From Synergistaceae bacterium (GTDB lineage Bacteria > Synergistota > Synergistia > Synergistales > Aminobacteriaceae), in contig JAFTCP010000116.1 of the NCBI GenBank assembly GCA_017454625.1, positions 2,917-66,916 of the forward strand: 64,000 nucleotides of DNA, written 5' to 3'. The first letter of the stretch is position 1. Every line of letters starts with the position of its first letter. Below the pieces are notes generated by a model that was not told where the DNA came from, did no database searches, and worked only from the letters and a program-made list of their open reading frames with translations. The translations under genes were made by a program, and so were the position numbers. Positions 3,646 to 64,000 of the stretch are shown here, piece after piece.

Positions 3646-4510
3646 AACGTTTCACGTAAAGTACTGAGCGAATGCCCGCATCAATCCTTCTGACTGTGTC
3701 GGCCTGGTTCATCGTGTATAAGTGGATGCCTTCAACTCCGCGTGCGAGCAAGTCAATAATCTGTTCGGTGGCGTATGCAATTCCGGCTTCTTTCACGGCT
3801 CCTTGATGATGACCGTACGCGTTCACAAATCTTCGTACACGTTCAGGCACGGAAGCTCCGCACATCTCGACGACTTTCTCAATTTGGGCGGCTGAAGTTA
3901 TCGGCATAATTCCGGCGATAATCGGCTGAGTTATTCCCATCGCGCGCGCTCGTTCACGCCATGCACAGAAAATATCGTTGTCAAAGAATAATTGCGAGAT
4001 TAAGCCTTTCACTCCGAGTTCGCATTTTTCTTTCAGGTGAATTAAGTCCTCTTCAACCGAATTAGCTTCCGGGTGTTTCTCAGGATAACAGGCCGCGAAT
4101 ACGTCAAAATCATCGCCGTAATTATCCTTGATGAACTTGATTAACTCGCTGGCATGATGAAAATCTCCCAAGTCGGATTTATCTTTCAGGTCGCCTCGTA
4201 ACGCTAAAATATTTCTCACGTTGTTAGCCTTGAGCTCGTCAAGAATTGCTTTGATGTCAGCTCTCGTTGTCCCGACGCAGGTTAAGTGAGCAACTCCGCA
4301 AGTCTTGTATTTATTCTGAATGCCCGAAGTAATCTCGACCGTGTTATCCCTGCTTGAACCGCCCGCGCCGTAAGTTACGCTGATTAAGTCGGGATTGAAG
4401 CTCACGAGGCTGTCAATAACTCCGTAAGTTGCTTCGGTGCTTTTATTCCCTTTTGGCGGGAAAATCTCAAATGTATAACTCGGTGCGAGTTTCTCGAAAA
4501 AGTTTTCCAT
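3629..4510 (-). CDS. metF: 5,10-methylenetetrahydrofolate reductase
   Basis: FEIFPPK...SVTYGAGGSSR...LALRGD motifs over 293 aa. Confidence 0.85.
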   Translation of the reverse strand: MENFFEKLAPSYTFEIFPPKGNKSTEATYGVIDSLVSFNPDLISVTYGAGGSSRDNTVEITSGIQNKYKTCGVAHLTCVGTTRADIKAILDELKANNVRNILALRGDLKDKSDLGDFHHASELIKFIKDNYGDDFDVFAACYPEKHPEANSVEEDLIHLKEKCELGVKGLISQLFFDNDIFCAWRERARAMGITQPIIAGIMPITSAAQIEKVVEMCGASVPERVRRFVNAYGHHQGAVKEAGIAYATEQIIDLLARGVEGIHLYTMNQADTVRRIDAGIRSVLYVKRYEARS

Positions 4511-4640
4511 GTTAATAATTTTACTCCCCTCTCTATAATTCTAACGCCGGTGCTGCTTTACAGGAAACCAGTGTTAATGATTGTGATACTTGCAATTATT
4601 TTAGCCTTAAGTTCAGAGACTTTGTCTAGTTTCGTTCACG

Positions 4641-5537
4641 TTAATTCTGCTTTACTTGAGACAAAAGCCATTCCCTGAGTTCAGAAATTTTATAGGCGTA
4701 ATCAAATGATGTCATATGCTCAGAGTAATTTTGTTCGTTGTCGTTTCCGTCTGGAAGAGTTGAGCCTTTTGTGAAAGTTATGAAATTGGCCCGCTGTTCA
4801 TGAGAAAGTTTTACGTCCGGATTTTTCGCGTTAATGTTCTTGTACCAGACACACGGGACTTTTTCAGCGTCGAACATGTCAATAACTTCTTTTTGTCCGG
4901 TTGAAGCCTTATCGTCTCCGGCAGAAGTTATGTAGATAAATTTTTGTCCGGCCAATTTTCCGAGCGTGTTAATGTCCCACTGCCCTGACACGAATAAACA
5001 TGCTGTGAACAAGTCCGGGTATTCCGAAGCTAACACAAGAGAAGTCATACATCCCATTGATTGGCCGGTCGCGTAAACTCGGTTTTCGTCAATCGCGTAA
5101 TTCTTCACTGCCCAGCGTACAAATCTTCCCGTCGGTTCGATATAATCACTGAGAATAAAGCCGTTGTGATCATCTAAAACTGTAACATTATAGAATGGGT
5201 TAATCACGATACAATCATATTCGCTCCAGACGAGAGCGCCGTAACCCTGTTTGAGCGAAAATTCCGGTTCTTTTCCGATCGAGCTCGCATCAGCTATGAA
5301 GAACACGACGGGATATTTTTTCTCAGGTGAATAATTTTCAGGCAAGTATAAATTGTAACTGAGCGTTAAGCCCGTAACGTCATCGCTGAAAGTTTGAACG
5401 CTGAACTTACCGGCTTTGTCGCTAATTAATGCCTGTAAAACTTCGTCGCCGGATTTATCAAGATGAAATAAATTTGCGGCATAACTCGTTGATGAAATTG
5501 CGAGGATTAATAACGTCAGAAAAATTTTGAGCTTCAT
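4641..5537 (-). CDS. secreted alpha/beta-hydrolase (esterase / PHB-depolymerase-like)
   Basis: Signal peptide and a GQSMGC nucleophile elbow (GxSxG). Confidence 0.5.
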   Translation of the reverse strand: MKLKIFLTLLILAISSTSYAANLFHLDKSGDEVLQALISDKAGKFSVQTFSDDVTGLTLSYNLYLPENYSPEKKYPVVFFIADASSIGKEPEFSLKQGYGALVWSEYDCIVINPFYNVTVLDDHNGFILSDYIEPTGRFVRWAVKNYAIDENRVYATGQSMGCMTSLVLASEYPDLFTACLFVSGQWDINTLGKLAGQKFIYITSAGDDKASTGQKEVIDMFDAEKVPCVWYKNINAKNPDVKLSHEQRANFITFTKGSTLPDGNDNEQNYSEHMTSFDYAYKISELREWLLSQVKQN

Positions 5538-9705: not shown

Positions 9706-10098
9706 CTAAGTTATATCTTCGACTACATCGCCGGGACTATGAAGCTCTGCACGTGAAACTTTAATTCCGAAGACAGCGAGCAAAGGATTTTCCGAAGTCC
9801 CAAATCTCTCAACCTCCATAGGTATCCTGATTAAATATTCCTCGCGTATAATTTTATCGTGAGTTTCGTCGGCTTTACCGTAAATGCGAATCCACCTGTC
9901 TTTGCTGAAACCCACAATGCAGACATTAGGATTTTTCTTAATCTGACAATAACACGGTTTCTCTGTTATTGCGCCGAAATACATAATTCCGTCCTTCTCA
10001 AGTATTCGGTTTATCGGTCTTCCTGAGGGATAATTGCCGTCAACCGTCAAAAGGTAATAAAATCCGCATTCGTTCAAGAAATCATATGCTTTGCTCAT
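9706..10098 (-). CDS. pyridoxamine 5'-phosphate oxidase-family (FMN-binding split-barrel) protein
   Basis: 130 aa. The pattern YLLTVDGNYPSGRP...MYFGAITEKPCYCQIKKNPNVCI is typical of the family. Confidence 0.6.
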   Translation of the reverse strand: MSKAYDFLNECGFYYLLTVDGNYPSGRPINRILEKDGIMYFGAITEKPCYCQIKKNPNVCIVGFSKDRWIRIYGKADETHDKIIREEYLIRIPMEVERFGTSENPLLAVFGIKVSRAELHSPGDVVEDIT

Positions 10099-10101
10099 TG
10101 T

Positions 10102-10404
10102 TTATTCTCCTCTCAAAGTATCTCGCAAATTTTCAATACAATTCCGTAATCCTCGCAACACGCAAAGGACATAACATTTTCCGCCGACGTTATCCGAAAG
10201 CTCAATGCTAGGCTGACCGAACACGCTATCCGGGCCAATTCTGGACGCAACGCCTTCAACAGCAAGACGCTTCATGTCAAATTCTGCGATTGCTTTATCG
10301 GGATTGCTGAGAAAATATTCGTGAAGCTCTTTAACGTTGAACGGAGCTTCCTGCTGAATTAACGGCTGTAAATTCGTCTCGATCTCCGATAACATCATAA
10401 TCAA
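10102..10404 (-). CDS. hypothetical protein
   Basis: 100-aa ORF that overlaps the upstream gene by 74 nt. No motif recognised. Confidence 0.3.
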   Translation of the reverse strand: MIMMLSEIETNLQPLIQQEAPFNVKELHEYFLSNPDKAIAEFDMKRLAVEGVASRIGPDSVFGQPSIELSDNVGGKCYVLCVLRGLRNCIENLRDTLRGE

Positions 10405-53164: not shown

Positions 53165-53350
53165 TCACCATCCCGGCCGTACTACTCTGAATTTCGCGCG
53201 GCCTCTCTGTTTCGCTTTCAAGGCTGAGATTTTATTTTCAAGTGTAGCAATCATATTCTGAACGTCTTTCAAGTTTGCGCGGGTTAATTTCAAGCCCTCA
53301 GCCTCGTAGGATTGACCGGACAATATTGCTTTCTCAGCCTTGTAATAAAG
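53165..53350 (-). pseudogene. 3' part (~61 codons) of head-tail joining gene gpW, cut by the inversion breakpoint
   Basis: ...YYKAEKAILSGQSYEAEGLKLTRANLKDVQNMIATLENKISALKAKQRGRAKFRVVRPGW is gpW-like. There is no plausible start codon or RBS. Upstream in frame is the antisense of the fibre repeats. Confidence 0.6.
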
Positions 53351-56308
53351 ACTATTAATCTCCGTAAAGACGAAATCAACACGGAGACAAAAGCCCGCAC
53401 AGAAGATGACGCAGGACTTGCACGTCAGGCAAACGAAAACGCAGAAGCGAACATGCGGACAGCCTTCAATCTGCAAGAGATTAACAACCGGCGTAAAACT
53501 GACTTACACCGCGAAGAGCAAGAGCGAATTGTAAATGACATAGACCAGCAAGGGCAAATCAACAGGGCCGCAACAGCCGACATCGAAAACGCCTTAAATC
53601 TGCATGAAATCAACGCGAGGCGTAAATCAGACCTGACGCTTGAAAAGCAGGAACGCATAACTCATGATGACAACCTGCAAAGACAGATAAATGAAGCCGT
53701 AAATGCCAGTCTAGAAAACGCACTAGGCATTCATCAAGAAGCCGAACAACGGCGAAAATCTGACGAGCGAATAAAAATCATAAGCGACGAGACGGCTCGG
53801 CGAATTGATATTGACGAGTATCACCAATTACAGATTGACAAGGCGATATACGCAATACTGCAAAATTCCCTTGCGCTGAGTGAAGCCTTAGAACGAAGAA
53901 GGGCGGCCTTAATTCTTGAAGAGCAATCCCGAACCGAAGAGGACGCAGGATTGCAGGGACAAAGCGACACAAACGCGGCGGCAATAATGCAAAACGCCCT
54001 GAACATTCAACAAGAGGCTGAAAATCGCAGAAAACTCTTAGACGAAATTGCGGCGGAAGCTCAGGAGCGAGAGCGTCAAATTCAGAATGTGCGCTCGGAG
54101 ATAAGCGAACTCTACGAAATTCCTCTGCCCGGCCTTCGTGAGGAACTTGCAAAACTTCAAGAGCAAACCGACACGAACGCTGAGGCTAATATCTGGACAG
54201 CTTTGAATATTCACTCTGCATTGGCCCGGCACACAGACACATTAATTCAAGAGACACAAAGCCGAGTTTCGGAGTATGTCGTGACGCAGAGACAGATTAA
54301 CGCAAACGCAGACGGAATTTTGCAGAACGCTCTGAACCTTAGCGATGCTTTCGACAGGTACAGGAATGCATTAACTCAGGAAGCCCGCGCCCGTGTGGAA
54401 GAAGACGCAAATCTTCAAACACAACAGGGCGTAAATGCTGCGGCTATTTTGGAGCTTTCAGCTAATCTTTCAAGTGAAGCCGAAAAACGCCGTGAGCTTT
54501 CAAAAGCTATATCGGGTATTAAATCGCCGGTTGATTGGAGCAAATCCTCAAGCCTTGCGATACCAGAGCCGCGCTGTGCAGTTGTGAACTTCACGGGGCT
54601 AAAGTCCATGCCTACGAGCAAGACCGCCGAAATTCCCGCAGTAATGGAATTTTGGGACATGCAGGGTAATTTTTTCAGGAAAAATATTACGTGTTCAGCG
54701 CAGGGCAGTTCATCATTGGGCTACGTAAAAAAGAACGTGAAATTTGACCTGCTCAATGAAGACGGCTCAGAATTTGACCTGAAAATTGGAAACTGGGTAG
54801 TTCAGGACGGTTTTCACCTGAAAGCTTATTACACGGACTTTTTCAGGGGAGTTGCAGTAACAAGCTATAAATTCTGGGATGAAGTCATGAGGTATAACGG
54901 CCTTGACAAAGACAGGCCATACAAGCGGGCAATGATTAACGCATCAGAGATACAGCCGAGCGGTACGAGCCTAAACAATCCCGATGATATGACCCTGCAA
55001 CTAGACACTGGAGCATTGTGTCATCCTGACGGCTTCCCTTGCATTGTTTATTTGAACGGCCAATTTTACGGGATATTCTCATGGCAGATTAAGAAACAGC
55101 GCAAGAATTACCATATGGATAAAAGCACTGTTGAGCATATTCACCTTGACGGCTCGCTTTACACACAGTATTTCTGGAACGGCGTAATCAACTGGACGAC
55201 GTTTGAAATTCGCAACCCGAACAAGCTCTACACGATGGACGGGAAGAAATATGACGGCGACGCTCCCAAAGAATTAATTGATGAGACTTCGGAGAAGTAC
55301 AACCCAGACGATAAAAATCACGTCCGAAGCGCGACGGTCAAGAAATATATTCAAGACTTTGTGCAGAATTTCGGCGTGTTGAAAACTCTCTACTCGGTTT
55401 ATCGTTCATCACCGAGTGAAGAAACTTTTGCGGCTGTAAAAGCAAAATATGAAGAGCTCTTCGACTGGGAAAATCAGCGCGACTATCTAATTTTCTCGGA
55501 CGTTGTGAAGAACTCAGACGGTTTCGGCAAAAATTGGCAGTGGACGACTTATGACGGCGTGAAATGGTTTGTGAATGCGTATGACCTCGATATGTCTTAC
55601 GGCGGCCACTGGCAGGGGATACAGATAACCGCCCCTTTGACAGGCCATATCACAGCAAGCACTGCCATTCCTACAGGATACGTTGCGTTGCTGTATAAAT
55701 CAGAGCTGGAGGCCAGATACAGGGAGTTACGGGACGCGGGAATAATCAGCGTCAACAATATTCTCTCAAAATTGGCCGATTGGACAGCAAGGATCGGAGT
55801 TGGCAATTATGAACTTGAATATGAACGCTGGCCGAACAGTCCGTGTATTCTTAACTACACAGACAGCATATACCGCGTCAAGAGGTGGCTTGAAGTCGAA
55901 ATTGCGAACATGGACAAAATTTATGGCTACAAGCCCGACGAAGAGCCTGCGGCTGTTGAAGTCTTCGATGATTTTGAGGCTCAAATCCGAGCTGCGGAAG
56001 ATGCGGGTATTTTGAGGCAAGTAAACGCTTTAGCTGTTTCCGACATCGAAAGCGAATTGAACCGAGCAGAGGCCAATTCTGAACGCAGACGCGAAGAAAC
56101 ACAGGAGCGTTATATCCGAGACGACCAAGACTCCGGCTTACAAACACAGATAAACAAGCTGGCGGAGGCGAACATGCTGGCGTTGCTTAAAGAACACGAG
56201 ACGCATAAAAAGTTAAGCGAAATAACGCAGTCGCTGGAAGAAATTCCCCGACACTCTGCCACAGACGAAGAAGTCGACGAAATGCTCGACGAAATTTATA
56301 ACTCATGA
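53312..56308 (+). CDS. CotH-domain tail fibre protein with N-terminal ~43-aa coiled-coil repeats; 5' end displaced by the inversion
   Basis: The first 12 codons are antisense of gpW. Repeats follow. The CotH-like core includes CIVYLNGQFYGIFSWQIKKQRKNY and NWQWTTYDGVKWFVNAYDLDMSYGGHW. Repeats recur at the C-terminus. Confidence 0.6.
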   Translation: MTGQYCFLSLVIKTINLRKDEINTETKARTEDDAGLARQANENAEANMRTAFNLQEINNRRKTDLHREEQERIVNDIDQQGQINRAATADIENALNLHEINARRKSDLTLEKQERITHDDNLQRQINEAVNASLENALGIHQEAEQRRKSDERIKIISDETARRIDIDEYHQLQIDKAIYAILQNSLALSEALERRRAALILEEQSRTEEDAGLQGQSDTNAAAIMQNALNIQQEAENRRKLLDEIAAEAQERERQIQNVRSEISELYEIPLPGLREELAKLQEQTDTNAEANIWTALNIHSALARHTDTLIQETQSRVSEYVVTQRQINANADGILQNALNLSDAFDRYRNALTQEARARVEEDANLQTQQGVNAAAILELSANLSSEAEKRRELSKAISGIKSPVDWSKSSSLAIPEPRCAVVNFTGLKSMPTSKTAEIPAVMEFWDMQGNFFRKNITCSAQGSSSLGYVKKNVKFDLLNEDGSEFDLKIGNWVVQDGFHLKAYYTDFFRGVAVTSYKFWDEVMRYNGLDKDRPYKRAMINASEIQPSGTSLNNPDDMTLQLDTGALCHPDGFPCIVYLNGQFYGIFSWQIKKQRKNYHMDKSTVEHIHLDGSLYTQYFWNGVINWTTFEIRNPNKLYTMDGKKYDGDAPKELIDETSEKYNPDDKNHVRSATVKKYIQDFVQNFGVLKTLYSVYRSSPSEETFAAVKAKYEELFDWENQRDYLIFSDVVKNSDGFGKNWQWTTYDGVKWFVNAYDLDMSYGGHWQGIQITAPLTGHITASTAIPTGYVALLYKSELEARYRELRDAGIISVNNILSKLADWTARIGVGNYELEYERWPNSPCILNYTDSIYRVKRWLEVEIANMDKIYGYKPDEEPAAVEVFDDFEAQIRAAEDAGILRQVNALAVSDIESELNRAEANSERRREETQERYIRDDQDSGLQTQINKLAEANMLALLKEHETHKKLSEITQSLEEIPRHSATDEEVDEMLDEIYNS
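53400..54500 (+). repeat. ~8 degenerate tandem coding repeats (~129 bp / ~43 aa)
   Basis: Repeat unit: E(D/E)D.GLQ.Q.N.NA.A.L.NALN(L/I).(E).(A/N).RR...L..E.Q.R. Confidence 0.7.
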
Positions 56309-56369
56309 TGTTAACACGGGGTGCGCAACCGTTTTGACATAAATTATCTTTATTTTGGAGGTTTTAATT

Positions 56370-56984
56370 ATGGCGTATGACCTTAGCGATGTTGTTACTG
56401 TGAAGCAGTTGCAGAAGTCTTCACAAAAAGCATTTAGTAAGGCGGCGGCCCTTGAAGAGGCAATCAATAACAAGCTGACCAGCGTATATAAAATCAAAGG
56501 CTCATTAGCGTTTGCGTCTTTAACAAGTGCTTTGCTCGTAAAGGCGAATGAGGGCAACGTATATAACATCACCGACGCATTCACGACCACTGCTGATTTT
56601 ATCGAGGGCGCGGGTAAGAAACATACAGCCGGTTCAAACGTTGTTATTGTTGAAACTACACCGGCGGTTTATACGGCTTCCTCAGACACCAGCGTGAACG
56701 CGGAAAAAACTTACTACGTTAATCAGGACAACGTCTACAGTATAGTTACTCCGGCAGGAAATGAAGACCCATCGGACGAAGGCTGGTATGAAATTACGAC
56801 ACCTGCGGCTTACAAGTTTGATGTTCACGCAGGAGACCTTTCAAACGTTCAGGTGCTTGCGGCTCCTTCGGCGGCGAACAATATCGCGTTACTCGATATA
56901 AACGGTCAGGTTATTGACAGTACGATAGCGATAGCGAGCGATGCAGAAGTTGACGAGATGCTTGCAGAAATCTACGGAGAATAA
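56370..56984 (+). CDS. fibre-associated protein
   Basis: ATG at 56370 behind a GGAGG RBS. It shares the C-terminal motif SDAEVDEMLAEIYGE with the CotH fibre. Confidence 0.45.
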   Translation: MAYDLSDVVTVKQLQKSSQKAFSKAAALEEAINNKLTSVYKIKGSLAFASLTSALLVKANEGNVYNITDAFTTTADFIEGAGKKHTAGSNVVIVETTPAVYTASSDTSVNAEKTYYVNQDNVYSIVTPAGNEDPSDEGWYEITTPAAYKFDVHAGDLSNVQVLAAPSAANNIALLDINGQVIDSTIAIASDAEVDEMLAEIYGE

Positions 56985-57009
56985 CCCAAAGGGATAACAT
57001 GACGACAGG

Positions 57010-57035
57010 CGGGGCTTAAGGGCTCCGTCTTTTTT
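57010..57035 (+). terminator. possible rho-independent terminator
   Basis: CGGGGC-ttaagg-GCTCCG hairpin followed by a TCT5 run. Confidence 0.45.
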
Positions 57036-57052
57036 ATACAGGAGGTTGCTCT

Positions 57053-57550
57053 GTGGCTTATCAGGAAAACAGTCTAACCACTGTAGGACATCTCAAGAAA
57101 ATAGCGGGGAAGAACAAGGACGAGGCGGACGCGCTGACTTTAGCCCAAGCAGTATTAAGTGCTCGGATGGACGCTCAAGTAATGGCCTCGACGGATGGCG
57201 ATGCAGATTACGCGTCAGAAGTTGTTGATGGTCGAATAGACACGTGGGGCAATATTCAGGGAAGTTTAGGGGTGAATGTTCGGAGCGGTCAAAATCGTTT
57301 GCAGGAAGCGTTAAACGTTGCGCAGATATTATTGCAGGCTGAGATTGAAGCCGTCTCGGAAGCGCGTCTAGAAAATACTTTGAACATAGCCGAAGCGAAC
57401 GAGACGCGCCGCCGTGAGTTAGCGAAAGAAGAGGAAGACCGCACCTCTGATGATAATTCCCTGCAGGAGCAAATTAATTCATTATCAGAGGCAGTGTTAG
57501 GAATATTAACAATAATCTCGGAAAATCGGGAACGACAAAAAGGAGGATAA
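57053..57550 (+). CDS. fibre-associated coiled-coil protein carrying the same repeat type
   Basis: GTG start behind an AGGAGG RBS. ENTLNIAEANETRRRELAKEEEDRTSDDNSLQEQINSLSEA matches the repeat consensus. Confidence 0.45.
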   Translation: MAYQENSLTTVGHLKKIAGKNKDEADALTLAQAVLSARMDAQVMASTDGDADYASEVVDGRIDTWGNIQGSLGVNVRSGQNRLQEALNVAQILLQAEIEAVSEARLENTLNIAEANETRRRELAKEEEDRTSDDNSLQEQINSLSEAVLGILTIISENRERQKGG

Positions 57551-57554
57551 ACCA

Positions 57555-58889
57555 ATGGCGGAAACAGCGCATACAGGTTGGTATCGTCAAGGGACAGTAT
57601 CAGTAACGAACGGGAGCACAAAGGTATCTGGAAACGGAACGAAATTTCTTACGGCCGGAATAAATCCCGGAGCGACATTCAGGCTTGATGCAAAATCGGA
57701 TTATGCATGTGAAGTTGCGAGCGTAGTAAGTGATACGGAACTGCAGTTAGTGAAGCCATATTACGGCCAGAGTGCGAGCGGACAGACGTATTCAATCGAT
57801 CGTAATCATCAATCAACATTGCTTGCAGACCTTGCGGCGAGATTATCAAAGGCGATGGGCAACTGGGAGGCTCGCTATGACTTGGACATGGCGACAATCA
57901 CGGGCGAGAGTGCGTATGAAATTGCGAAGAGGCTGGGAAAGACGAGTGCGGCGACGGAAGCGGCTTGGATTGATGAATTGAAAGCTGGCTCGGAGCTTGT
58001 AGCATTGAAGGCGTTAGTAGATCCGATACTTGTTCACAACTCAGGAGCGCATAACGCATTATACAGAGGTAAAAATCTGGGAGTATTCTCGGATGCACAG
58101 AGCGCGGCGATACGTTCAGGAGAATTTGCGGGAACGACCGGCGGGGTATATGCAGATATATATCCTGGTGATTTTTGGGTGTTTAGCAACATTCCTTATT
58201 CGTACATCGATGAGAACGACGAGGAGAAATCAAGTACGTACAGCGGTACAATGAGGGTTGCGGACTTAGATTATTATTTACGGAGTGGTGATAATATAGA
58301 TTTAGGAGTGCACCATGCCGTAGTAATCCCAGACACGAATATGTTTACTGCGCCGATGAATGATACGAATACGACAGAGGGCGGCTATGTTGGCTCAAAG
58401 ATGCGCACGAAGTATTTGAGGAGAGCGGAAGCAATCTTCAAGGCGTGCTTTGGAGAAAATCACATACTGTCTCATCGTGAATACTTAGTGAACGCCGTAG
58501 CGAATGGCCGAGCCTCCGGTGGAGCGTGGTGCGACAGTGTTGTTGAGTTGCTGGACGAGAGAATGGCATACGGAGCTCCGATATTCGACAGTGCGAGCAC
58601 GGACGGCGGAGATACAATTCCGAACAGATACAGCGTAGGTTGCAAGCAGTTGAATTTATTCCGCCATCGCCCTGACCTGATTAGCAACAGACAGTGGTAC
58701 TGGCTAAGAAACGTTGTTTCTGCTGCTTATTTCGCTGATGTCATCAGCATTGCGAATTGTAGCTACAATTCTGCTTCGACTGCTGGCAGCGGTGTTCGCC
58801 CTGATTCACTACCCGCACGATTATCGGGCTTGTTCCTGTGTGCGTGTGAAGGGAAGGAAGAGACATCCTTTCTGCCGCAAGGTGGATAA
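57555..58889 (+). CDS. tail fibre / receptor-binding protein, DGR target (C-type-lectin-like C-terminus with variable region)
   Basis: The C-terminus QWYWLRNVVSAAYFADVISIANCSYNSASTAGSGVRP has the WLR...GVRP framework of DGR variable proteins. A DGR-type RT gene follows directly. Confidence 0.7.
   Translation: MAETAHTGWYRQGTVSVTNGSTKVSGNGTKFLTAGINPGATFRLDAKSDYACEVASVVSDTELQLVKPYYGQSASGQTYSIDRNHQSTLLADLAARLSKAMGNWEARYDLDMATITGESAYEIAKRLGKTSAATEAAWIDELKAGSELVALKALVDPILVHNSGAHNALYRGKNLGVFSDAQSAAIRSGEFAGTTGGVYADIYPGDFWVFSNIPYSYIDENDEEKSSTYSGTMRVADLDYYLRSGDNIDLGVHHAVVIPDTNMFTAPMNDTNTTEGGYVGSKMRTKYLRRAEAIFKACFGENHILSHREYLVNAVANGRASGGAWCDSVVELLDERMAYGAPIFDSASTDGGDTIPNRYSVGCKQLNLFRHRPDLISNRQWYWLRNVVSAAYFADVISIANCSYNSASTAGSGVRPDSLPARLSGLFLCACEGKEETSFLPQGG
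58695..58802 (+). repeat. DGR variable region (VR)
   Basis: 14 codons (TAT GAT ATC AGC ATT AAT TGT AGC TAC AAT TCT ACT GGC AGC) are interspersed with fixed codons. All keep a pyrimidine in position 3, as expected for diversified AAY codons. Confidence 0.65.
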
Positions 58890-58947
58890 ATGCCAATCGC
58901 CACGCCGCCAGTTACGACTGACGCGGCTATAGGGCGGTTTTCTTTTT

Positions 58948-60186
58948 ATGGATGAGAATATTTTTCTTGACGCTGATGTAATATACGATGCCGGAACTAA
59001 AGCGATGAGGGGCAGCAAGTTCAAGTATGCAACTCAGCTTTTTGAAATGAACCATCTGCTTTATACGGCAATGCTTCAACAATCCCTGCGCGACGGCACA
59101 TATACACCTTCGCAGGGTAATAAATTTCTCATACGTGAACGCGGAAAGCCCAGATACATCACGAGTAATACAATGGCCGATAAGACTATTAATCATATTA
59201 TTTGTGATGAAATTCTTACGCCTACCTTGAGTAAGTTTTTGATTTATGACAACGGAGCTTCTCAGAAGGGAAAGGGAGTAGATTTTCACCGCCGACGTTT
59301 TGAGTTTCATATGCACAAATACTTCATGAGGCACGGAACGAATGACGGTTTTATCATGCTGGGTGATTTCTCAGGTTATTACGCGAATATCCCGCACGAT
59401 AAATGTCTCAAAGTTTTAGAGCATTTCCTGATGCGCTCGGTGATTAATCCCGCCAATTTAAGAATGACGCTCAGCCTTATAGCAAAAATATTCATGACCT
59501 TTCGCATCGACGTGAGCAGATTTACTGACGCGGAAATTCAGGCGATGCGTGAGGGTAAGGTTGACCAGATGCTGAATTTGAATGTTAATCCTGAGACTTT
59601 AACAGGTCAGAAATTTCTTGATAAAGGCGTGGATATCGGCAATCAAATATCACAGAATATTGGCCTGATTTATCCATACAGGTTTGATAATTACGCGAAG
59701 ATTATTGCTGGCATTCAAGGTTACGGCAGATACACGGATGATTTCTACGCAATTTCTGAAAGCCGCGAGACCTTGAAGAATTTGCTTGACGGGCTGAGAG
59801 GAATTGCGCGGGAGTTTGGAATAATCATCAATGAGCGGAAGACAAGAATTGTAAAACTATCGAGCTTTTACCGGCACTTGCAGAACGGCTACAGCCTGAC
59901 TGAAACGGGGCGTGTAATTCGCAAGATTAACTCTAAGAGCATAACGCGCGAGCGTAGAAAGCTGAAGGCGTATAAGAGACTGCTTGACGCTGAGAAAATC
60001 ACATACAGCGAAGTTGAAAATATTTTCAAGAGCTGGCTGGGCGGCAACTATAAAAGGATGTCGCGACGGCAAATCTACAACATGACGGATTTATACATAA
60101 AATTATTCAGGAGGAAACCGAAATGGAAAAAGGGACACTCACGATTAAGCTGGCTGATGGAACACAGCTCGACGGACTGGAGCTGA
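58948..60186 (+). CDS. DGR-type reverse transcriptase
   Basis: Motifs FLIRERGKPRYI, NGASQKGKG, the DGR-diagnostic DIGNQISQ, and catalytic YGRYTDDF. Confidence 0.85.
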   Translation: MDENIFLDADVIYDAGTKAMRGSKFKYATQLFEMNHLLYTAMLQQSLRDGTYTPSQGNKFLIRERGKPRYITSNTMADKTINHIICDEILTPTLSKFLIYDNGASQKGKGVDFHRRRFEFHMHKYFMRHGTNDGFIMLGDFSGYYANIPHDKCLKVLEHFLMRSVINPANLRMTLSLIAKIFMTFRIDVSRFTDAEIQAMREGKVDQMLNLNVNPETLTGQKFLDKGVDIGNQISQNIGLIYPYRFDNYAKIIAGIQGYGRYTDDFYAISESRETLKNLLDGLRGIAREFGIIINERKTRIVKLSSFYRHLQNGYSLTETGRVIRKINSKSITRERRKLKAYKRLLDAEKITYSEVENIFKSWLGGNYKRMSRRQIYNMTDLYIKLFRRKPKWKKGHSRLSWLMEHSSTDWS

Positions 60187-60470
60187 ACGGAAATAACTTC
60201 ATCAGCAAAAAAGAAGTAACAGCCGAGACGTTCAGGGGCAAACTTGGACACGTAACGATTACCGGCGACGCGGAGACAGACGAGGCCGGATTAATCGGCG
60301 AGCATGGGCAAATGGAACTCGTGCAGGTTGCTCATTACACACAGGCCACACACGGCATTAAAGACGGGTATTATTTCGTGCTCAGAGATATTTCGGCGGA
60401 TGAGCTGGAGAGACTTCAAAATCGCGGTGATATTGAATATATCGCGATGATGACGGGTGTAACACTCTAG
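60123..60470 (+). CDS. XkdW-like phage protein
   Basis: 115 aa immediately upstream of an XkdX-like gene. It overlaps the RT 3' end by 64 nt. Confidence 0.4.
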   Translation: MEKGTLTIKLADGTQLDGLELNGNNFISKKEVTAETFRGKLGHVTITGDAETDEAGLIGEHGQMELVQVAHYTQATHGIKDGYYFVLRDISADELERLQNRGDIEYIAMMTGVTL

Positions 60471-60482
60471 GAGGTTAAAGAC

Positions 60483-60617
60483 ATGTTTGAGAAAATCAAG
60501 AAGTTTTACGACTGCGGCGTATGGAGCGAGCAGAAGGTTCGTGATGCAGTAGCAAAGAACGTAATCACGGCGGAAGAGTTCAAGGAAATTACGGGAAAAG
60601 GATTGCTCGGCGAATAG
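60483..60617 (+). CDS. XkdX-family phage protein (44 aa)
   Basis: ORF I read myself: MFEKIKKFYDCGVWSEQKVRDAVAKNVITAEEFKEITGK. This is typical of XkdX. Confidence 0.6.
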   Translation: MFEKIKKFYDCGVWSEQKVRDAVAKNVITAEEFKEITGKGLLGE

Positions 60618-60633
60618 TCGGGCTTTTATTTTG

Positions 60634-60667
60634 CGGGGAGGCTCATTGCGGGTCTCCCTCTTTTTTA
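60634..60667 (+). terminator. rho-independent terminator
   Basis: GGGAG...CTCCC stem followed by a T6 run. Confidence 0.5.
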
Positions 60668-60680
60668 TAGGAGGCCGCGA

Positions 60681-60983
60681 ATGTTTGAACAGATAAAAAT
60701 ATGGACGATTGAGCAAGTACTTTGGGCAGAAAAGAACCTGAAAGGCAAAAGCGGAGCGGAGAAAAAAGCGGCTGTAGTTAAGAAACTGGACGATATGATA
60801 ACACTGCCGTCATATTTTGAATGGGTAGACGATATATTGCTCTCATGGTTCGTAGATAAGGTTTGCGACAAACTAAACTCAATCACGGGGCATAATTTCG
60901 GCGATTTGATTTTGAGCGAAAAACGAGAGCGTGAATTGGCCGAAGAAATCGCCGATCCAGAACAAACAAAAGAGGTGAGCTAG
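60681..60983 (+). CDS. lysis-cassette protein (LL-H holin-family-like?)
   Basis: 100 aa directly upstream of the endolysin, with SGAEKKAAVVKKLDDMITLP. I saw no clear TM segment. Confidence 0.3.
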   Translation: MFEQIKIWTIEQVLWAEKNLKGKSGAEKKAAVVKKLDDMITLPSYFEWVDDILLSWFVDKVCDKLNSITGHNFGDLILSEKRERELAEEIADPEQTKEVS

Positions 60984-61559
60984 ATGGATGAACAAGAAAA
61001 ATTCATGCGTTCAATTGATTTTGCCCTGAAGTGGGAAGGCGGAAGAAATTTTATAGTCATCAACGGCAAGCCCGTAGTCAAAGGAGCGGCTAAGAACGAT
61101 GCGGGCGGGGCTACAGCTTACGGCATAATCATTCCCACTCTGAAAACCGCATACAGGGCCGGTATTGTCGGACATCAGGATATTTGCAAGCTGACACTTG
61201 ACGAGGCGAAGGAGATTTACCGCGTTAATTTCTGGGACAAGTATAACTGGGGACAGCTGGATTGGCCGGTTTGTTTATGTTGTCTGGACTGTTGCATTAA
61301 TCACGGCGGCTTTGCGTCAATCCTTCAACGCGCAGTAATTGATTGCGGGCAGTCCGTAGTAATTGACGGGAAATTTGGGCCTAAGACATTTGCGGCTTTG
61401 AAGGCGTGCGATCCTCATGAATTGGCCGGAGCAATTTACACTCAGCGTAAGAGGTACTATGAAAAAATCGTTGCCGCTAATCCTAAACAAAAAGTGTTTC
61501 TTAAGGGCTGGATGAGACGCGCCGATGAGATGGCAAAAACGGCAGGTGTTAAACCATGA
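60984..61559 (+). CDS. endolysin, GH108 N-terminal domain + PG_binding_3
   Basis: FALKWEGG...GGATAYGI catalytic region and a C-terminal peptidoglycan-binding pattern (DGKFGPKTFAAL). Confidence 0.8.
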   Translation: MDEQEKFMRSIDFALKWEGGRNFIVINGKPVVKGAAKNDAGGATAYGIIIPTLKTAYRAGIVGHQDICKLTLDEAKEIYRVNFWDKYNWGQLDWPVCLCCLDCCINHGGFASILQRAVIDCGQSVVIDGKFGPKTFAALKACDPHELAGAIYTQRKRYYEKIVAANPKQKVFLKGWMRRADEMAKTAGVKP

Positions 61560-61999
61560 ATTTTGACTCTTACCTCGAAACAGGCGCGGGGTTGCTGGGG
61601 GCTTTCCTGTCGTGGTTTTTTGGCGGTCTAAATGGCGGCATACTTGTACTGGCCACGTTCATGATTATTGACCAAATTACTGGTGTCATGAAAGGCTATG
61701 TTCTTAAACGTTGGAGCAGTGATGTCGGTTTTCATGGCATCTCTAAGAAAGTCTGTATGTTTTTGTTCGTCGGCATAGCTAATATTATTGATAAAAATTT
61801 GCATATAGATTTTCTAGGACACTCTGATATTTTGAGGGACTTTGTAATATGTTTTTACGTAGCAAATGAAGGGTTGAGCATAATCGAAAATGCTATTGAA
61901 CTTGATGCGCCTGTTCCTCACGGCCTTAAAGAACATTTTATGTCATGGCGTAACAAGCAGTTAATGAGTAAAAATTCTCCAGGTGAGGAAGAAGATTAA
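61556..61999 (+). CDS. holin (Phage_holin_4_1 / TcdE-like)
   Basis: Three TM segments, with IIDQITGVMKG and NEGLSIIENAIELDAPVP motifs. Confidence 0.75.
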   Translation: MNFDSYLETGAGLLGAFLSWFFGGLNGGILVLATFMIIDQITGVMKGYVLKRWSSDVGFHGISKKVCMFLFVGIANIIDKNLHIDFLGHSDILRDFVICFYVANEGLSIIENAIELDAPVPHGLKEHFMSWRNKQLMSKNSPGEEED

Positions 62000-62111
62000 A
62001 ACTTGCCAATCGTGAAGTTTCTGCGTAAAAATCGCCTGAGATACTGACTTGCGGGAAAAATAAATCAGAGTAAACATACAGCTATTAAGACATGGAGGAG
62101 GTTTACCCGCG

Positions 62112-62366
62112 ATGAAAAATCCCGAAATTATGAACAGGAACGGCGTACCTGAAAGCCTCACGATTATGTTTCATAAGGACAATTGCAGTGTGATTGCTAT
62201 TCAGGACGCTACGGAAGAGAGCTTAACAGGGGCGGAACTTGTTGCAAACCTAAATCAATTAAGATTATTCAGCAAATTCCGCCTAGACCGTGAGACTTCA
62301 GAATATGCCCGTCTGGTAACGACAGACTGTTTCGGCGACATTCACTATTTCAAAGCATGGAAGTAA
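62112..62366 (+). CDS. hypothetical protein
   Basis: 84-aa ORF behind a GGAGGAGG RBS. Confidence 0.3.
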   Translation: MKNPEIMNRNGVPESLTIMFHKDNCSVIAIQDATEESLTGAELVANLNQLRLFSKFRLDRETSEYARLVTTDCFGDIHYFKAWK

Positions 62367-62382
62367 TACAATATCGCACAGG

Positions 62383-62766
62383 TTAAGAATTGGCCTTTTC
62401 CTGTGCAATAATTTTTTCCAGCCTGCCAATTTTCCTTGCCAGAATTTTCATGTAATACAAAATTTCCCGTTCAAGCTCCTCCTTGCTGTAATTGGCCTCA
62501 TCGAAGCCTTCCATTGTTTCCTCAAGAACCGCATCATCGGCTTTTTGCTGTTCTTTTTCAGCTTCACGCCTGCGCTGCCAGACTGCCGCGAAACCCTGCG
62601 CGCCTTTTTCGTAATTCTCAATGGTTTTTCTGGGCACAAACCACTGATGACCTACTTTAACCGCCCCTTCTAATTTTCCCTGACGGCAAAGCAGAGCTAC
62701 GGAGCTTTTGATGTAACCTAAAATCTTTGCGGCTTCTTCTGATGAAATCATATCGCTCAAATCCAT
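62383..62766 (-). CDS. excisionase-type (MerR-like) HTH DNA-binding protein
   Basis: SSEEAAKILGYIKSSVALLCRQGKLEGAVKVGHQWFVPRKTIENY is typical of the HTH_17/excisionase family. Confidence 0.55.
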   Translation of the reverse strand: MDLSDMISSEEAAKILGYIKSSVALLCRQGKLEGAVKVGHQWFVPRKTIENYEKGAQGFAAVWQRRREAEKEQQKADDAVLEETMEGFDEANYSKEELEREILYYMKILARKIGRLEKIIAQEKANS

Positions 62767-62827
62767 TTTCTAATCACCTCCATTATTTATTGGTTTATAT
62801 TTTATCATATTATCGATAAAAATATAG

Positions 62828-62904
62828 TTGTATTTTATTCTTTTAGAGTTATACTACATACATAAAGCGGAAACGCAGTAATCATCAGGAAGGAGAACAA
62901 AAAA
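62828..62904 (+). promoter_or_regulatory. promoter + conserved 5' leader, copy 1
   Basis: TTGTAT, 16-nt spacer, TATACT; then AAGCGGAAACGCAGT (GCG-GAAA-CGC hairpin) and an AGGAG RBS. Confidence 0.5.
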
Positions 62905-63258
62905 ATGAAAAAAGCATTATTCATCGAAGAGTTTGAGAGCATTATCAAGGACAGAAGCAAAGGCAACACAGCGGGAATTAACAGCACGATGTTTTCGGCG
63001 TACTGCAGGAGCAAAGAAAAAGGCAAGGAGAGGCTTGATTTCGACGACATAATCTTCGACAGCGACATTGAGCCCATCGCAGAATCAGCCCGCAGGTTCG
63101 GCCTCAAGGAATTTACAATTTCGGTGAGGCAGGGCAACCTGACGGACATTTTGGCGGCGTTTCAGGAACTCGGAATATTCATTAAAGGCACGATACAGAT
63201 TAAGAGCCGCTATACGGAGCACAACGTTATATCAGCAATTCTCATGGAGTTAGCTTAA
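62905..63258 (+). CDS. hypothetical protein
   Basis: 117-aa ORF behind a strong RBS. No motif recognised. Confidence 0.4.
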   Translation: MKKALFIEEFESIIKDRSKGNTAGINSTMFSAYCRSKEKGKERLDFDDIIFDSDIEPIAESARRFGLKEFTISVRQGNLTDILAAFQELGIFIKGTIQIKSRYTEHNVISAILMELA

Positions 63259-63301: not shown

Positions 63302-63352
63302 TTATGCTCCAAAATCCTCCATATTTTTCATGAAAAAGAATTAAAATATTAC

Positions 63353-63429
63353 TTGCATTTTCACGTTTTAGAGTTAAGATACGTACATCAAGCGGAAACG
63401 CAGTGATAATCACAAAGGAGCAAAGAAAA
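63353..63429 (+). promoter_or_regulatory. promoter + conserved 5' leader, copy 2
   Basis: TTGCAT, 16-nt spacer, TAAGAT; then the same TTTTAGAGTTA and AAGCGGAAACGCAGT blocks as copy 1. Confidence 0.5.
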
Positions 63430-64000
63430 ATGACAGATAAGACAGCACGACAGATTGAAAACATGAAGAAGCAGACGATCGGCGTAGAAGTTGAAATGAA
63501 CAACATCAACCGGGAGAAAGCCGCGAGAACAGCCGCCGATTTCTTCAAGACCGGCAGATACGAGTTCACAGCCCCCCGCAACGGTTACGTAACTTGGAGC
63601 GCATGGGACATGCAAGGCAGAGAGTGGAAATTTCAGCGCGATGTCAGCATTGAAGGCCCGGACGATGAAAAATGCGAACTTGTTACTCCGATACTTACTT
63701 ACGGCGACATCGAAACACTGCAGGATTTACTCAGAGCGTTAAGGAAAGCCGGAGCAATGAGCAGTGCATCAAGAGGATGCGGAGTTCATATCCATATCGG
63801 ACTTAAGAGCGAAGCCGGAGACCACACAGCGCAGACGCTCACAAATCTTGCGAACATCATGGCCGCGCACGAAGAGCAGATTGGACGCGCAATTAAAATC
63901 GACGAGCGCAGGTCTGATGAATATTGTATGACAGTTTCACGTGATTTTCTGAACATGTTACACGCCGAAAAACCCAAGACTATGGATGAGCTTGCGGATG
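63430..64000 (+). CDS. amidoligase-family (Amidoligase_2) protein, 3' end outside window
   Basis: ORF I read myself: TIGVEVEMNNI ... CELVTPIL ... GCGVHIHIG. This matches my recollection of the putative amidoligase family found on mobile elements. Confidence 0.6.
   Translation, partial: MTDKTARQIENMKKQTIGVEVEMNNINREKAARTAADFFKTGRYEFTAPRNGYVTWSAWDMQGREWKFQRDVSIEGPDDEKCELVTPILTYGDIETLQDLLRALRKAGAMSSASRGCGVHIHIGLKSEAGDHTAQTLTNLANIMAAHEEQIGRAIKIDERRSDEYCMTVSRDFLNMLHAEKPKTMDELAD

Follow-up and report, generated by a model that had tools for sequence, protein, structure and literature searches.

A prophage diversity-generating retroelement with a single repeat, probably the remnant of a deletion between its variable and template repeats

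Introduction

How can a diversity-generating retroelement (DGR) carry a reverse transcriptase (RT) and a mutagenised variable repeat (VR), and no template repeat (TR) to be copied? Catalogues of DGRs mostly list complete cassettes; an RT that lacks a TR/VR pair is either dropped or labelled inactive. The question is raised by a prophage locus in the window analysed here, a stretch of 64,000 nucleotides from a Synergistaceae bacterium (GenBank assembly GCA_017454625.1, contig JAFTCP010000116.1); positions are counted from its first letter. An earlier note, made from the sequence alone, had described a fibre gene with a VR followed by an RT, and had proposed that VR x TR recombination removed avd and the TR or, alternatively, that the TR is remote or outside the window. 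Here we compare this locus with its relatives. All sequences used are metagenome or MAG assemblies, and the host of the prophage is most likely a rumen Synergistaceae.

Results

The RT gene (58948..60186, forward strand, like all features below) is a single uninterrupted ORF of 412 aa. As the earlier note had it, DIGNQISQ and YGRYTDDF are present, and the protein matches Pfam RVT_1 (4.4e-11) and phrog_1423 (1.5e-45). DGR-clade RTs have [I/L/V]GxxxSQ where other bacterial RTs have QGxxxSP, together with YxDD. The IGNQISQ and YTDD motifs, and homologues 55-86% identical that are flanked by canonical TR/VR pairs, point to a DGR-clade enzyme. Its matches to the NCBIfam group II, Drt and retron RT models all fell far under the cut-offs, and it weakly matches PDB entry 8ub7 ("Reverse transcriptase"), which we take to be the BPP-1 enzyme.

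The partners of this RT are missing. A-tolerant ungapped scans of both strands, sensitive self-BLAST and BLAST with the TRs of relatives detected no TR, in agreement with the earlier search by eye; the span covered was the window plus 3.2 kb past its end (taken from contig L002), 67 kb in total, and it holds no second copy of the repeat on either strand or in either direction. Tried as a TR for some other VR in the same span, the window repeat gave a best off-diagonal score of 18 vs 14 for shuffles. No credible second RT was found there either; a weak RT-like tblastn match (10023-10196, E 0.005) is backed by no ORF and was taken as chance. The absence of an Avd-like gene was likewise borne out. 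No such ORF fits between 58889 and 58948, neither Avd nor an equivalent was found in the 67 kb, and tblastn with five accessory ORFs of relatives gave nothing credible there (best E 0.026 over 36 aa).

The target gene (57555..58889) encodes a tail-fibre-like putative receptor-binding protein of 444 aa with a C-terminus altered by fusion. Residues 9-165 match PHROG tail-fibre families (e.g. phrog_1980, 1e-19). Pfam gave no domain match on the target, and Pfam and NCBIfam were uninformative on the target and its neighbouring ORFs. The homologues of the target in related loci bear the VRs of canonical DGRs, and this homology, with the sequence resemblance seen in WYWLR...GVRP, would fit variable residues displayed on a C-type-lectin-like fold at the C-terminus. 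The segment runs from WYWLRN at 58695 to the end of GVRP at 58802, exactly as first described. The VR segment is present, although its TR-homologous part is 58713-58802 (90 nt) and not the whole of 58695-58802.

The ORF continues beyond GVRP: its C-terminus reads NRQWYWLRNVVSAAYFADVISIANCSYNSASTAGSGVRP, then DSLPARLSGLFLCACEGKEETSFLPQGG, then stop. This read-through tail (58803..58889), translated from spacer DNA, had been counted as 29 codons; the read-through is real and comprises 28 codons plus the stop, which sits within a conserved ATAAATGCC motif at 58886. DGR targets normally end soon after the VR, as the note had assumed, and 91 of the 119 clusters of target homologues stop a few residues past GVRP. 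In the window the native end of about five residues (AALIY-type, five being the commonest length) is replaced by the tail. The fused clusters among the 119 read DSLP... into the spacer.

What an undamaged locus looks like is given by about 76 related loci with RTs 55-86% identical to that of the window. They are arranged as target gene with VR, stop, hairpin, an accessory ORF of 175-180 aa, TR, spacer and RT, and the TR ends about 130 nt 5' of the RT. A clear TR/VR pair is found in 73 of them, and in three more the VR is cut by the contig start. The comparison with homologous loci that the note had called for thus yields intact ones that retain the whole order. Pfam, NCBIfam and a PDB profile search gave no match for their accessory ORF, so that we did not call it Avd and refer to it only as an accessory ORF in the Avd position. 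In 26 TR/VR pairs from these intact relatives, 362 of 379 mismatches (95.5%) lie at TR adenines. In the >95% clade of the window, one member, L009, is cut inside the spacer, and no intact member was recovered. Megablast of 56300-61600 against GenBank phages gave no match, and IMG/VR contributed a single, distant relative (L001).

Aligned to the TRs of L010, L011 and L005, the single surviving repeat (58713..58802) has VR-type, adenine-mutagenised content. Its differences from these TRs cluster at TR adenines, where seven AAY template codons are altered (AAT>GAT, AAC>ATC, AAT>AGC, AAT>ATT, AAC>AGC, AAT>TCT and AAT>ACT). Fourteen mutagenised AAY codons had been proposed; against the TRs of the nearest relatives about 9-10 of them correspond to AAY template codons and the remainder do not, the TAT, TGT, GGC, last AGC and TAC of the repeat agreeing with the TR itself. 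Fisher tests of A against non-A mismatches were uninformative, as they took in non-homologous flanks and TRs about 15% diverged, and the adenine bias was judged site by site against L092 and L010, plus the 26-pair tally. The past activity that the earlier note read from this footprint belongs to the time before the deletion only.

This repeat fills the VR position and the TR position at once. Its 5' flank is of VR type, namely the target gene, and its 3' flank is of TR type: it runs into GATTCACTACCCGCAC..., as the TRs do in L005, L010, L011, L003 and L052. In intact relatives the 3' side of the VR has a stop and, in this order, GCTGCCCTTATCTACTAA, AATCAGTAAATC and a covarying hairpin. The window repeat lacks the stop, GCTGCCCTTATCTACTAA, the AATCAGTAAATC motif and the hairpin, so that the VR-side recognition elements (the IMH equivalent and the downstream hairpin) are absent and the TR-type flank GATTCACT (GATTCAC) stands in their place; the AATCAGTAAATC motif shows no enrichment elsewhere in the window. 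The switch from VR to TR can be located by aligning the VR and TR flanks of relatives to 58781..58803 (TGCTGGCAGCGGTGTTCGCCCTG), the interval between the last mutated template adenine and the first base that tells the VR flank from the TR flank.

The 145 nt between VR end and RT start, 58803..58947, were verified, and they have homologues in the spacers between TR and RT in 14 relatives, among them L001, with an RT only 37% identical. In the alignment of these spacers, 24 pairs are 97.8% paired over all cells and 17 of them have compensatory changes; 0 of 500 shuffles reach the score, and slid controls are 34-60% paired. The covarying helices lie at 58856-58858/58866-58868, 58871-58875/58882-58886, 58895-58901/58933-58939 and 58904-58912/58917-58927. 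The region thus matches a DGR spacer (Sp) RNA, normally found between TR and RT, and the earlier suggestion that the VR is fused to that spacer is confirmed. A promoter and terminator scan gave nothing above chance, and a helix with a T-run 5' of the RT start was left uncalled. Rfam at E<=1 on 58400-59200 had no match, the RT motifs of Weinberg et al. 2017 (PMC5737381) being among the families that the spacer structure did not match.

The locus therefore has one repeat, with the target gene 5' and the TR-RT spacer 3', and intact homologues keep the block in between. It could still be intact in trans, if a TR (and Avd) in another part of the host genome or in a different prophage diversified 58713-58802: the search covered 67 kb of the genome, and both the RT ORF and the spacer are intact. 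However, the TR lies directly 5' of spacer and RT in all of the roughly 76 intact relatives, and here the fused copy takes up that place. The repeat has the TR-type GATTCAC and is without the VR-type flank and hairpin, which were reported to be needed for target recognition in BPP-1 (PMC3240598), and it is identical across three contigs. We regard diversification in trans as very unlikely, and the proposal of a remote or out-of-window TR is not supported, the place beside the spacer being occupied and the 67 kb holding neither TR nor accessory gene.

The fused state was also found elsewhere. It recurs independently in L006, L067, L092, L099 and in about 10 of the 119 target clusters (about 8%), and single clusters at 90% identity contain fused and intact alleles together. 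The fused L006 has intact near relatives, and the spacer of the fused L067 is 100% identical to those of the intact L018 and L027. A matched pair is formed by L099 (fused) and L100 (intact), which are 96.5% identical and have the VR in common up to GGTGTGCGTCCTG; past this point L099 continues into spacer and RT and L100 into stop, hairpin and accessory ORF. Judged from these sequences, the deletion is recurrent in the DGR family of the window and not a one-off event.

An assembly artefact would give the same picture if the phage were intact and the assembler had jumped from the VR to the TR 3' flank through their common 3' block. Up to 23 nt (58781-58803) are identical between VR and TR, enough for a few shared 21-mers, every sequence comes from a metagenome or MAG assembly, and some fused contigs with pristine TR content (L097, L098 and the P0228 cluster) derive partly from gapped scaffolds. 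Against this, at least three contigs, which come from different assemblies and also differ in a nearby patch, have this junction. In the L099/L100 pair the equivalent junction interval is at most 13 nt, too short for a mis-join at k>=21, and neither contig has Ns. The usual outcome of assembly at these repeats is a contig break, seven contigs beginning exactly at the VR. We consider a mis-join unlikely, also in view of the decay of the sister locus described next, which fits a real relic.

This sister locus, L092, has 92.6% nucleotide identity to 55277-63122 of the window, and its RT fragment is 97.5% identical. Its repeat is a chimera with a VR 5' part and a TR 3' part: mutations occupy its first three AAY codons, and the next seven AAY codons and TAC are pristine TR. 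The target has a nonsense codon (TGG>TAG) and the RT is split into 83 and 298 aa. The RT is decayed in L006 as well, and lesions are found in two of the three fused lineages with a full RT vs about 6 of some 85 other loci. Further junction products were seen among the fused target clusters. P0121 is another 5'VR/3'TR chimera, with a long pristine TR tract, and the P0228 cluster consists of pure-TR products without mutagenesis. P0248 and P0316 are fused alleles of one cluster with differing VR content. In P0232, P0204 and P0239 the 5' part is pristine and codons in the middle or at the 3' end are changed, those of P0232 and P0204 being the 3'-most AAY codons only; a single simple crossover would probably not give such patterns. 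Between the window and L092 the repeat shows about 11 differences at ~24 template-adenine sites and about 4 at ~66 other sites, which implies either two independent deletions, in a clade about 7% diverged, or adenine-specific change after fusion.

Change after fusion would be expected if the single repeat were a working DGR, transcribed with the spacer and the fibre gene and copied by the RT with errors at adenines, the cDNA returning to that one copy. The RT ORF and spacer helices of the window are intact, sister fused alleles (window and L092; P0248 and P0316) differ almost only at template-adenine sites, and the 3'-most changes in P0232 and P0204 have the polarity expected of short cDNA tracts. 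Such a DGR would template itself and gradually spend its adenines, and it would either receive the accessory protein in trans or do without it. The fused alleles are, however, static. Over 15 kb the window and L002 differ by one SNP and one recombinant patch, and 58695-58950 is identical; the repeat is the same in the window, in the independent contig L002 and in P0291, though the nearby patch differs. (A silent cassette in the window was considered as the source of the patch at 58567-58655, and no donor copy was found.) Five identical contigs in cluster 3 and five in cluster 5 bring to three the clusters with unchanged repeats. The accessory gene is absent, the 3' flank is of TR type with no hairpin, target and RT are decayed in L092 and the RT in L006, and in L092 it is the 5' sites that are mutated, against the expected polarity. 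A repeat that templated itself would moreover use up its adenines irreversibly. We think it highly improbable that the single repeat still diversifies itself.

Discussion

We propose that the locus is the remnant of a canonical prophage DGR, produced by deletion between the VR and TR repeats, and we hold this reading to be probable. It is the mechanism that the earlier note had put forward, and it is supported by both flanks of the repeat, by the L099/L100 pair and by the L092 chimera. The ancestor would have carried a target gene with a C-terminal VR, a stop, a hairpin, the ORF of 175-180 aa, a TR, a spacer of ~130-145 nt and the RT. Deletion between the two direct repeats of ~90 nt, about 720-800 bp apart, would have taken out the accessory gene, the adenine-rich template and the VR 3' flank, in which the stop codon and hairpin lay. 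The remaining repeat would keep VR content, with the junction in the last ~23 nt common to VR and TR, and would now be joined straight to spacer and RT; consequently the fibre ORF runs 28 extra codons into the spacer. Having no template, accessory protein or VR-side recognition sequences, the element would be unable to diversify further. We infer this loss of activity for a locus in which RT and spacer are themselves intact: the receptor-binding tip would be fixed at its last VR state, and the RT would be an orphan, still undecayed.

Deletions between short diverged direct repeats arise by replication slippage, single-strand annealing or RecA recombination, and any of these, the last as RecA-type recombination, may have acted between VR and TR. 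It is also conceivable that the DGR made the deletion itself. A mutagenised cDNA would anneal to the VR 5' part and to the TR 3' end on replicating DNA, as in oligonucleotide recombineering, so that ~800 nt are looped out and a freshly mutagenised single repeat is left. Sister fused alleles do differ in adenine-site content (window and L092; P0248 and P0316), fused alleles are frequent among the target clusters, and in recent reconstitution papers the integration of cDNA is reported to require annealing of ssDNA and to be sensitive to host exonucleases (PMC12875486; bioRxiv 10.64898/2026.07.21.739853). Yet L099 holds exactly the VR of the intact L100, with no new sequence, and the L092 and P0121 chimeras and the unmutated pure-TR P0228 cluster fit host-mediated repeat deletion. 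Adenine-specific spacer changes from a long cDNA were looked for by eye and rejected, the window and L092 spacers differing at just two positions, neither of them adenine. A deletion bridged by cDNA thus seems improbable to us.

Repeat deletion would be a definite and, it seems, common route by which DGRs are lost, in which the working repeats double as deletion substrate. The position of the exchange would decide the fate of the tip, which may stay locked as it was last adapted, return to the Asn-rich template sequence or become chimeric, and a fused tip would always acquire a spacer-encoded tail of ~28 residues. This suggests a cost that may cap how long TR and VR remain similar and close. 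One repeat abutting a conserved spacer and RT could serve as a signature for DGR-finding software, and natural "locked" tail-fibre variants could provide material for host-range studies. In engineered DGR mutagenesis, template loss by repeat recombination would stop diversification.

Among the nearest known systems are the intact DGRs of the same family (L011, L005, L100, L093 and about 70 more, from Synergistaceae and gut metagenome prophages). Their target gene, spacer and neighbours (CotH-domain protein, XkdX, GH108 lysin and holin) are homologous to those of the window; they keep the VR-side stop and hairpin, the accessory ORF and an AAY-rich TR, whereas the window lacks this block of ~700-800 bp. 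The DGR of Bordetella phage BPP-1 (mtd-VR, avd, TR, spacer, brt), which serves as the reference DGR, likewise has an RT with [I/L/V]GxxxSQ and YxDD, a tail-fibre-type target with a C-terminal variable segment and a structured spacer just 5' of the RT, and the relatives of the window share its adenine-specific TR-to-VR differences. Unlike BPP-1, the window has no TR, accessory gene, VR-side 3' flank or hairpin, and for the accessory ORF of its relatives no similarity in sequence to known families or PDB chains could be detected.

As in other deletions between short direct repeats, the two repeats of intact loci are of ~90 nt, about 80% identical and ~750 bp apart, one repeat is kept, and the products fall into the classes pure first, pure second and 5'-first/3'-second chimera, a single simple crossover leaving P0232, P0204 and P0239 unfitted. 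What sets this case apart is that the repeats form the functional core of a retroelement, so that the deletion would inactivate it and at the same time rewrite the C-terminus of a receptor-binding protein. Large surveys of DGRs (Wu et al. 2018, PMC5758913; Roux et al. 2021, PMC8144416) would omit a DGR-clade RT for which no TR/VR pair is detected, or would score it as inactive, and natural VR x TR deletion products were not described in the searched passages of these surveys or of the other literature. In summary, sequence comparison indicates that the locus is a known system in decayed form, for which a recurring route of loss is reconstructed here.

The element and its prophage

The target gene (57555..58889, plus strand) encodes a 444-aa protein of tail-fibre type, with an N-terminus related to phrog_1980 (1e-19). 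No Pfam domain was matched in this ORF, which ends in NRQWYWLRNVVSAAYFADVISIANCSYNSASTAGSGVRP, then DSLPARLSGLFLCACEGKEETSFLPQGG and a stop. The reverse transcriptase (RT) ORF (58948..60186, plus strand, 412 aa) begins 58 nt past that stop, carries DIGNQISQ and YGRYTDDF, and matches Pfam RVT_1 (4.4e-11) and the PHROG reverse-transcriptase family (1.5e-45). The genes around this diversity-generating retroelement (DGR) form a prophage set: portal, protease and capsid genes lie upstream on the minus strand, a CotH-domain protein, XkdX, a GH108 lysin and a holin are nearby on the plus strand, and an integrase is found about 1.2 kb past the window end. The nearest relatives are from Synergistaceae genomes that were assembled from goat and deer rumen.

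Two other features of this prophage were observed. An unusual tail-associated protein of 998 aa is encoded upstream of the fibre genes (53312-56308): Pfam finds a CotH kinase-like domain in it (1.1e-09), with long degenerate heptad-like repeats on either side, seen in the DNA as internal repeats at 53.4-54.5 kb. Near the lysogeny end, a direct repeat of about 90 nt (62817-62908 and 63342-63433, 77-82% identical) precedes successive small DUF7698-type genes. Its position is kept in L006, a goat rumen MAG locus (4436-4512 and 5027-5103), and it looks like a repeated promoter or leader element.

Intact relatives

RT homologues numbered 2,733 at E<=1e-20. About 100 loci were fetched, and adenine-tolerant repeat pairs were sought beside each RT. 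The pair of template repeat (TR) and variable repeat (VR) was clear in 73 loci; in 3 more the VR was cut by the contig start. In intact relatives the TR ends about 130 nt before the RT start and the VR lies 720-800 nt upstream of the TR, at the 3' end of a homologue of the window target. In a tally of 26 TR/VR pairs, template adenines account for 362 of the 379 mismatches, and the VR departs from the TR at 54% of the TR's adenines. Such adenine-biased pairs beside the RT indicate a genuine DGR family. The earlier note had called a DGR-type RT at 58948..60186, which its motifs, the RVT_1 match and these canonical relatives confirm.

An ORF of 175-180 aa is conserved between TR and VR (L011 3209-3736, L005 4209-4736, L001 5160-5702 and 11 other loci), with N100, P104, R113, R114 and other residues invariant. 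No similarity to it was detected in Pfam, NCBIfam, PHROGs or PDB sequences. It is Avd-like by position only, and could be Avd in a diverged form or some other accessory protein.

Two loci have unusual arrangements. At L015 (2721-4721) the accessory ORF and RT, with a presumed TR, have non-phage neighbours, which encode a YbaK/EbsC-like protein and a periplasmic binding protein. The 3.5 kb upstream contain neither a target gene nor a VR. The locus is either a remnant of another kind or a DGR whose target is remote. Contig Ga0310695_10001079 (66.6 kb) holds two complete cassettes about 35 kb apart (L044, 2636-10838; L045, 37850-46052) with identical TR and VR coordinates, which could be tandem prophages or a large duplication.

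A single repeat with VR content and a TR-side flank

The earlier note had seen neither a TR nor an Avd-like ORF, and both absences held up. We searched the window and 3.2 kb past its end, taken from the independent near-identical contig L002; as this stretch reaches the integrase, the end of the prophage was covered. Ungapped scans of both strands with mismatches forgiven at adenines of the putative template, permissive self-BLAST of the whole window, BLAST with the TRs of four relatives, and a reverse scan taking the window copy as template for some other VR all recovered only the window copy itself. The best off-diagonal score over this range was 18, against 14 for shuffled queries, and corresponds to an 18-nt palindrome within the copy. 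The same range yielded neither a credible second RT nor a homologue of the accessory gene seen in relatives. The perfect palindrome (GAATTGTAGCTACAATTC, 58754-58771) arose via two of the adenine-site changes and, with about 0.24 palindromes of this kind expected per window by chance, is probably a coincidence.

We aligned the window copy with the TR side and the VR side of L005, L010, L011, L003 and L052. The TR of L010 (RT 86% identical) reads GCT AAT GTC AAC AAT AAT GGC AAT TGC AAC TAC AAT AAT GCT TCG AAT GCT GGC AGC GGT GTT CGC CCT, followed by GAT TCA CTA CCC GCA C. The window repeat reads GCT GAT GTC ATC AGC ATT GCG AAT TGT AGC TAC AAT TCT GCT TCG ACT GCT GGC AGC GGT GTT CGC CCT, followed by GAT TCA CTA CCC GCA CG. 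Against this TR the window repeat is VR-like, with about 8 of 20 template adenines changed. The earlier note had described a VR-like segment at 58695-58802 with 14 codons marked by adenine mutagenesis; the VR-like content and the mutagenesis of AAY codons stand, but homology to TRs begins at 58713 and the changed AAY codons are seven.

3' of CCT, the window has the sequence found after the TR in relatives. Intact relatives have, 3' of the VR, GCTGCCCTTATCTACTAA (stop), AATCAGTAAATC and a hairpin with a covarying stem, and none of these is found at the window copy in the alignment. The junction must fall within 58781-58803: the final adenine change is at 58780, and the first base to tell the two flanks apart sets the other limit. 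Compared with the 73 intact pairs, as the earlier note had suggested for prophages retaining target, avd, TR and RT, the window lacks the intervening block.

The spacer RNA

The 145 nt at 58803-58947 align with the TR-RT spacers of 14 relatives, as far as L001 (RT 37% identical), and this segment is, judged from the alignment, a DGR spacer. Its consensus fold has 24 pairs, with 97.8% of cells paired and compensatory changes in 17 pairs; none of 500 column shuffles reached these values, and slid controls gave 34-60% pairing. The spacer (window and L001-L086) ends in a helix and T-run directly before the RT start codon. The motif ATAAATGCC, invariant in spacers and located at 58886 in the window, supplies an in-frame TAA, so that fused ORFs gain a similar tail of about 28 codons wherever frame is kept. 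No Rfam 15 family matched the structure, although RT-associated motifs, that of phage BPP-1 (RT-10) included, are present there from Weinberg et al. 2017 (passages of PMC5737381). Modelling of this RNA, proposed in the earlier note, thus yields a covarying fold and a candidate new DGR spacer RNA family.

Inspection by eye shows, in the first spacer hairpin of the window (58814-58821 / 58839-58846, ACCCGCAC ... GTGCGTGT), one C-U mismatch at a pair kept in L092, a sister locus, and in intact relatives. It may be an early sign of relaxed constraint.

Other fused loci

The fused form, one repeat joined straight to spacer and RT, is found in other loci. L006 (RT 82% identical) aligns collinearly with the window over the whole span from target to RT; its VR content is unlike the window's, its tail is of the same kind (GVRPDSLHAHLSDLIPGAGRGKEGLSFVPEGS) and its RT is frameshifted near the C-terminus. 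L067 (human gut, RT 67% identical) mismatches the L018/L027 TR only at template adenines, and its spacer is 100% identical to those of L018 and L027, hence its deletion is very recent. The matched pair L099 (fused) and L100 (intact) is 96.5% identical over 1.6 kb without Ns and shares the VR up to GGTGTGCGTCCTG, past which L099 continues into spacer and RT, and L100 into stop, hairpin and accessory ORF. Target homologues formed 119 clusters. The protein stops a few residues past GVRP in 91 of them, most often after 5 (AALIY), and in about 10 it runs on into the spacer as DSLP...; single 90%-identity clusters include fused and intact alleles.

The sister locus L092, also fused, is 92.6% identical to window 55277-63122 (97.5% in the RT fragment). 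Its repeat reads GCT CAT GTG GAT TAC AAT GCG AAT TGC AAC TAC AAT AAT GCT TCG AAT GCT GGC AGC: AAY codons 1-3 are changed, and the next seven together with TAC are pristine template. Given that 54% of template adenines change in this family, a run of fourteen unchanged ones would be expected with a probability of about 2e-5, and the repeat is a 5'VR/3'TR recombinant. In the L092 target a TGG>TAG change hits the conserved NRQW, and the RT of this locus falls into two parts (83 and 298 aa). The earlier proposal that VR x TR recombination deleted avd and the TR, fusing the VR to the spacer, is thus supported by the 5' VR and 3' TR flank of the window copy, by L099/L100 and by L092, and extended by the recurrence of the fused form.

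Deletion products

Pure VR content is seen in the window, L006, L067, L099 and the target alleles P0178, P0248, P0316 and P0306; pure TR content in L097, L098 and five contigs of the P0228 cluster; and 5'VR/3'TR chimeras in L092, P0121 and P0247. These three classes are the spectrum expected from direct-repeat deletion and fit several routes alike: slippage at either repeat end (by fork direction), single-strand annealing with strand segregation, and ordinary crossing-over. Pure-VR products are probably favoured by selection where the phage still needs a working fibre. P0232, P0204 and P0239 have a pristine 5' part and changed 3' or middle codons. They do not fit a single crossover, and could reflect patchy heteroduplex repair, unusual TRs of their own lineages, or something more interesting.

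It is unlikely that the window's fused junction was created by assembly. The window junction is present in at least three contigs from different assemblies, which differ elsewhere too, the L099/L100 junction shares at most 13 nucleotides, and L092 carries independent lesions. Moreover, the usual artefact at these repeats is a contig break and not a join. The fused pure-TR scaffolds with Ns (L097, L098) are less secure.

Seven public contigs start exactly at the VR (L013, L014, L019, L041, L042, L082, L091), and the start of several others is a short way upstream of the TR. Breaks at the DGR repeats are routine when phages of this family are assembled, and will bias surveys of DGR completeness.

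Activity of the fused element

Some observations speak for a fused element that is still active. The window RT and spacer are intact, and between the window and L092 repeats there are differences at about 11 of about 24 template-adenine sites and at only about 4 of about 66 others, a contrast of the same kind as between P0248 and P0316. The simplest reading of these differences is that deletions are frequent and separate per lineage, each catching the VR of the moment. The L092 polarity (5' changed, 3' pristine) is also opposite to that of 3'-anchored cDNA tracts. Against activity, the window element has no adenine-rich template and no accessory gene, and its copy has a TR-type 3' flank without hairpin; in published work on BPP-1 the VR-side flank and hairpin are important for target recognition, and Avd and TR are essential (PMC3240598; PMC12875486).

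Window and L002 differ by 1 SNP over 15 kb, save for a patch of about 90 nt in the target gene just 5' of the repeat (58567-58655; L002 9611-9708), which holds about 40 differences and a 9-nt indel, with many changes of synonymous type (PIFDSASTDGGDTIPN-RYSVG versus PQFDSSAPDGSDNVVGMFHRYSVS). This patch looks like a recombination import of another polymorphic-loop allele rather than adenine mutagenesis; no donor copy was found in the window. Despite this exchange, the window, L002 and the target homologue P0291 carry one and the same repeat, and identical fused repeats occur in five contigs each of two further clusters. Decay in L092 and L006 points the same way. Of the fused lineages whose RT region is complete, 2 of 3 have RT lesions, versus about 6 of about 85 other loci; the numbers are small, and the excess is in the direction expected for an element no longer working. 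The evidence thus speaks, not conclusively, against continuing activity.

Conclusions

Our results support that the window locus is a DGR that lost its function through a deletion between VR and TR, and that decay by this route has happened repeatedly in a large DGR family of Synergistaceae and gut prophages. In the passages found by a limited open-access full-text search of DGR surveys and mechanistic papers, neither natural VR x TR deletion products nor single-repeat DGR remnants are described. The system is of a known kind, in a degenerate form that, as far as those passages go, was previously under-described.
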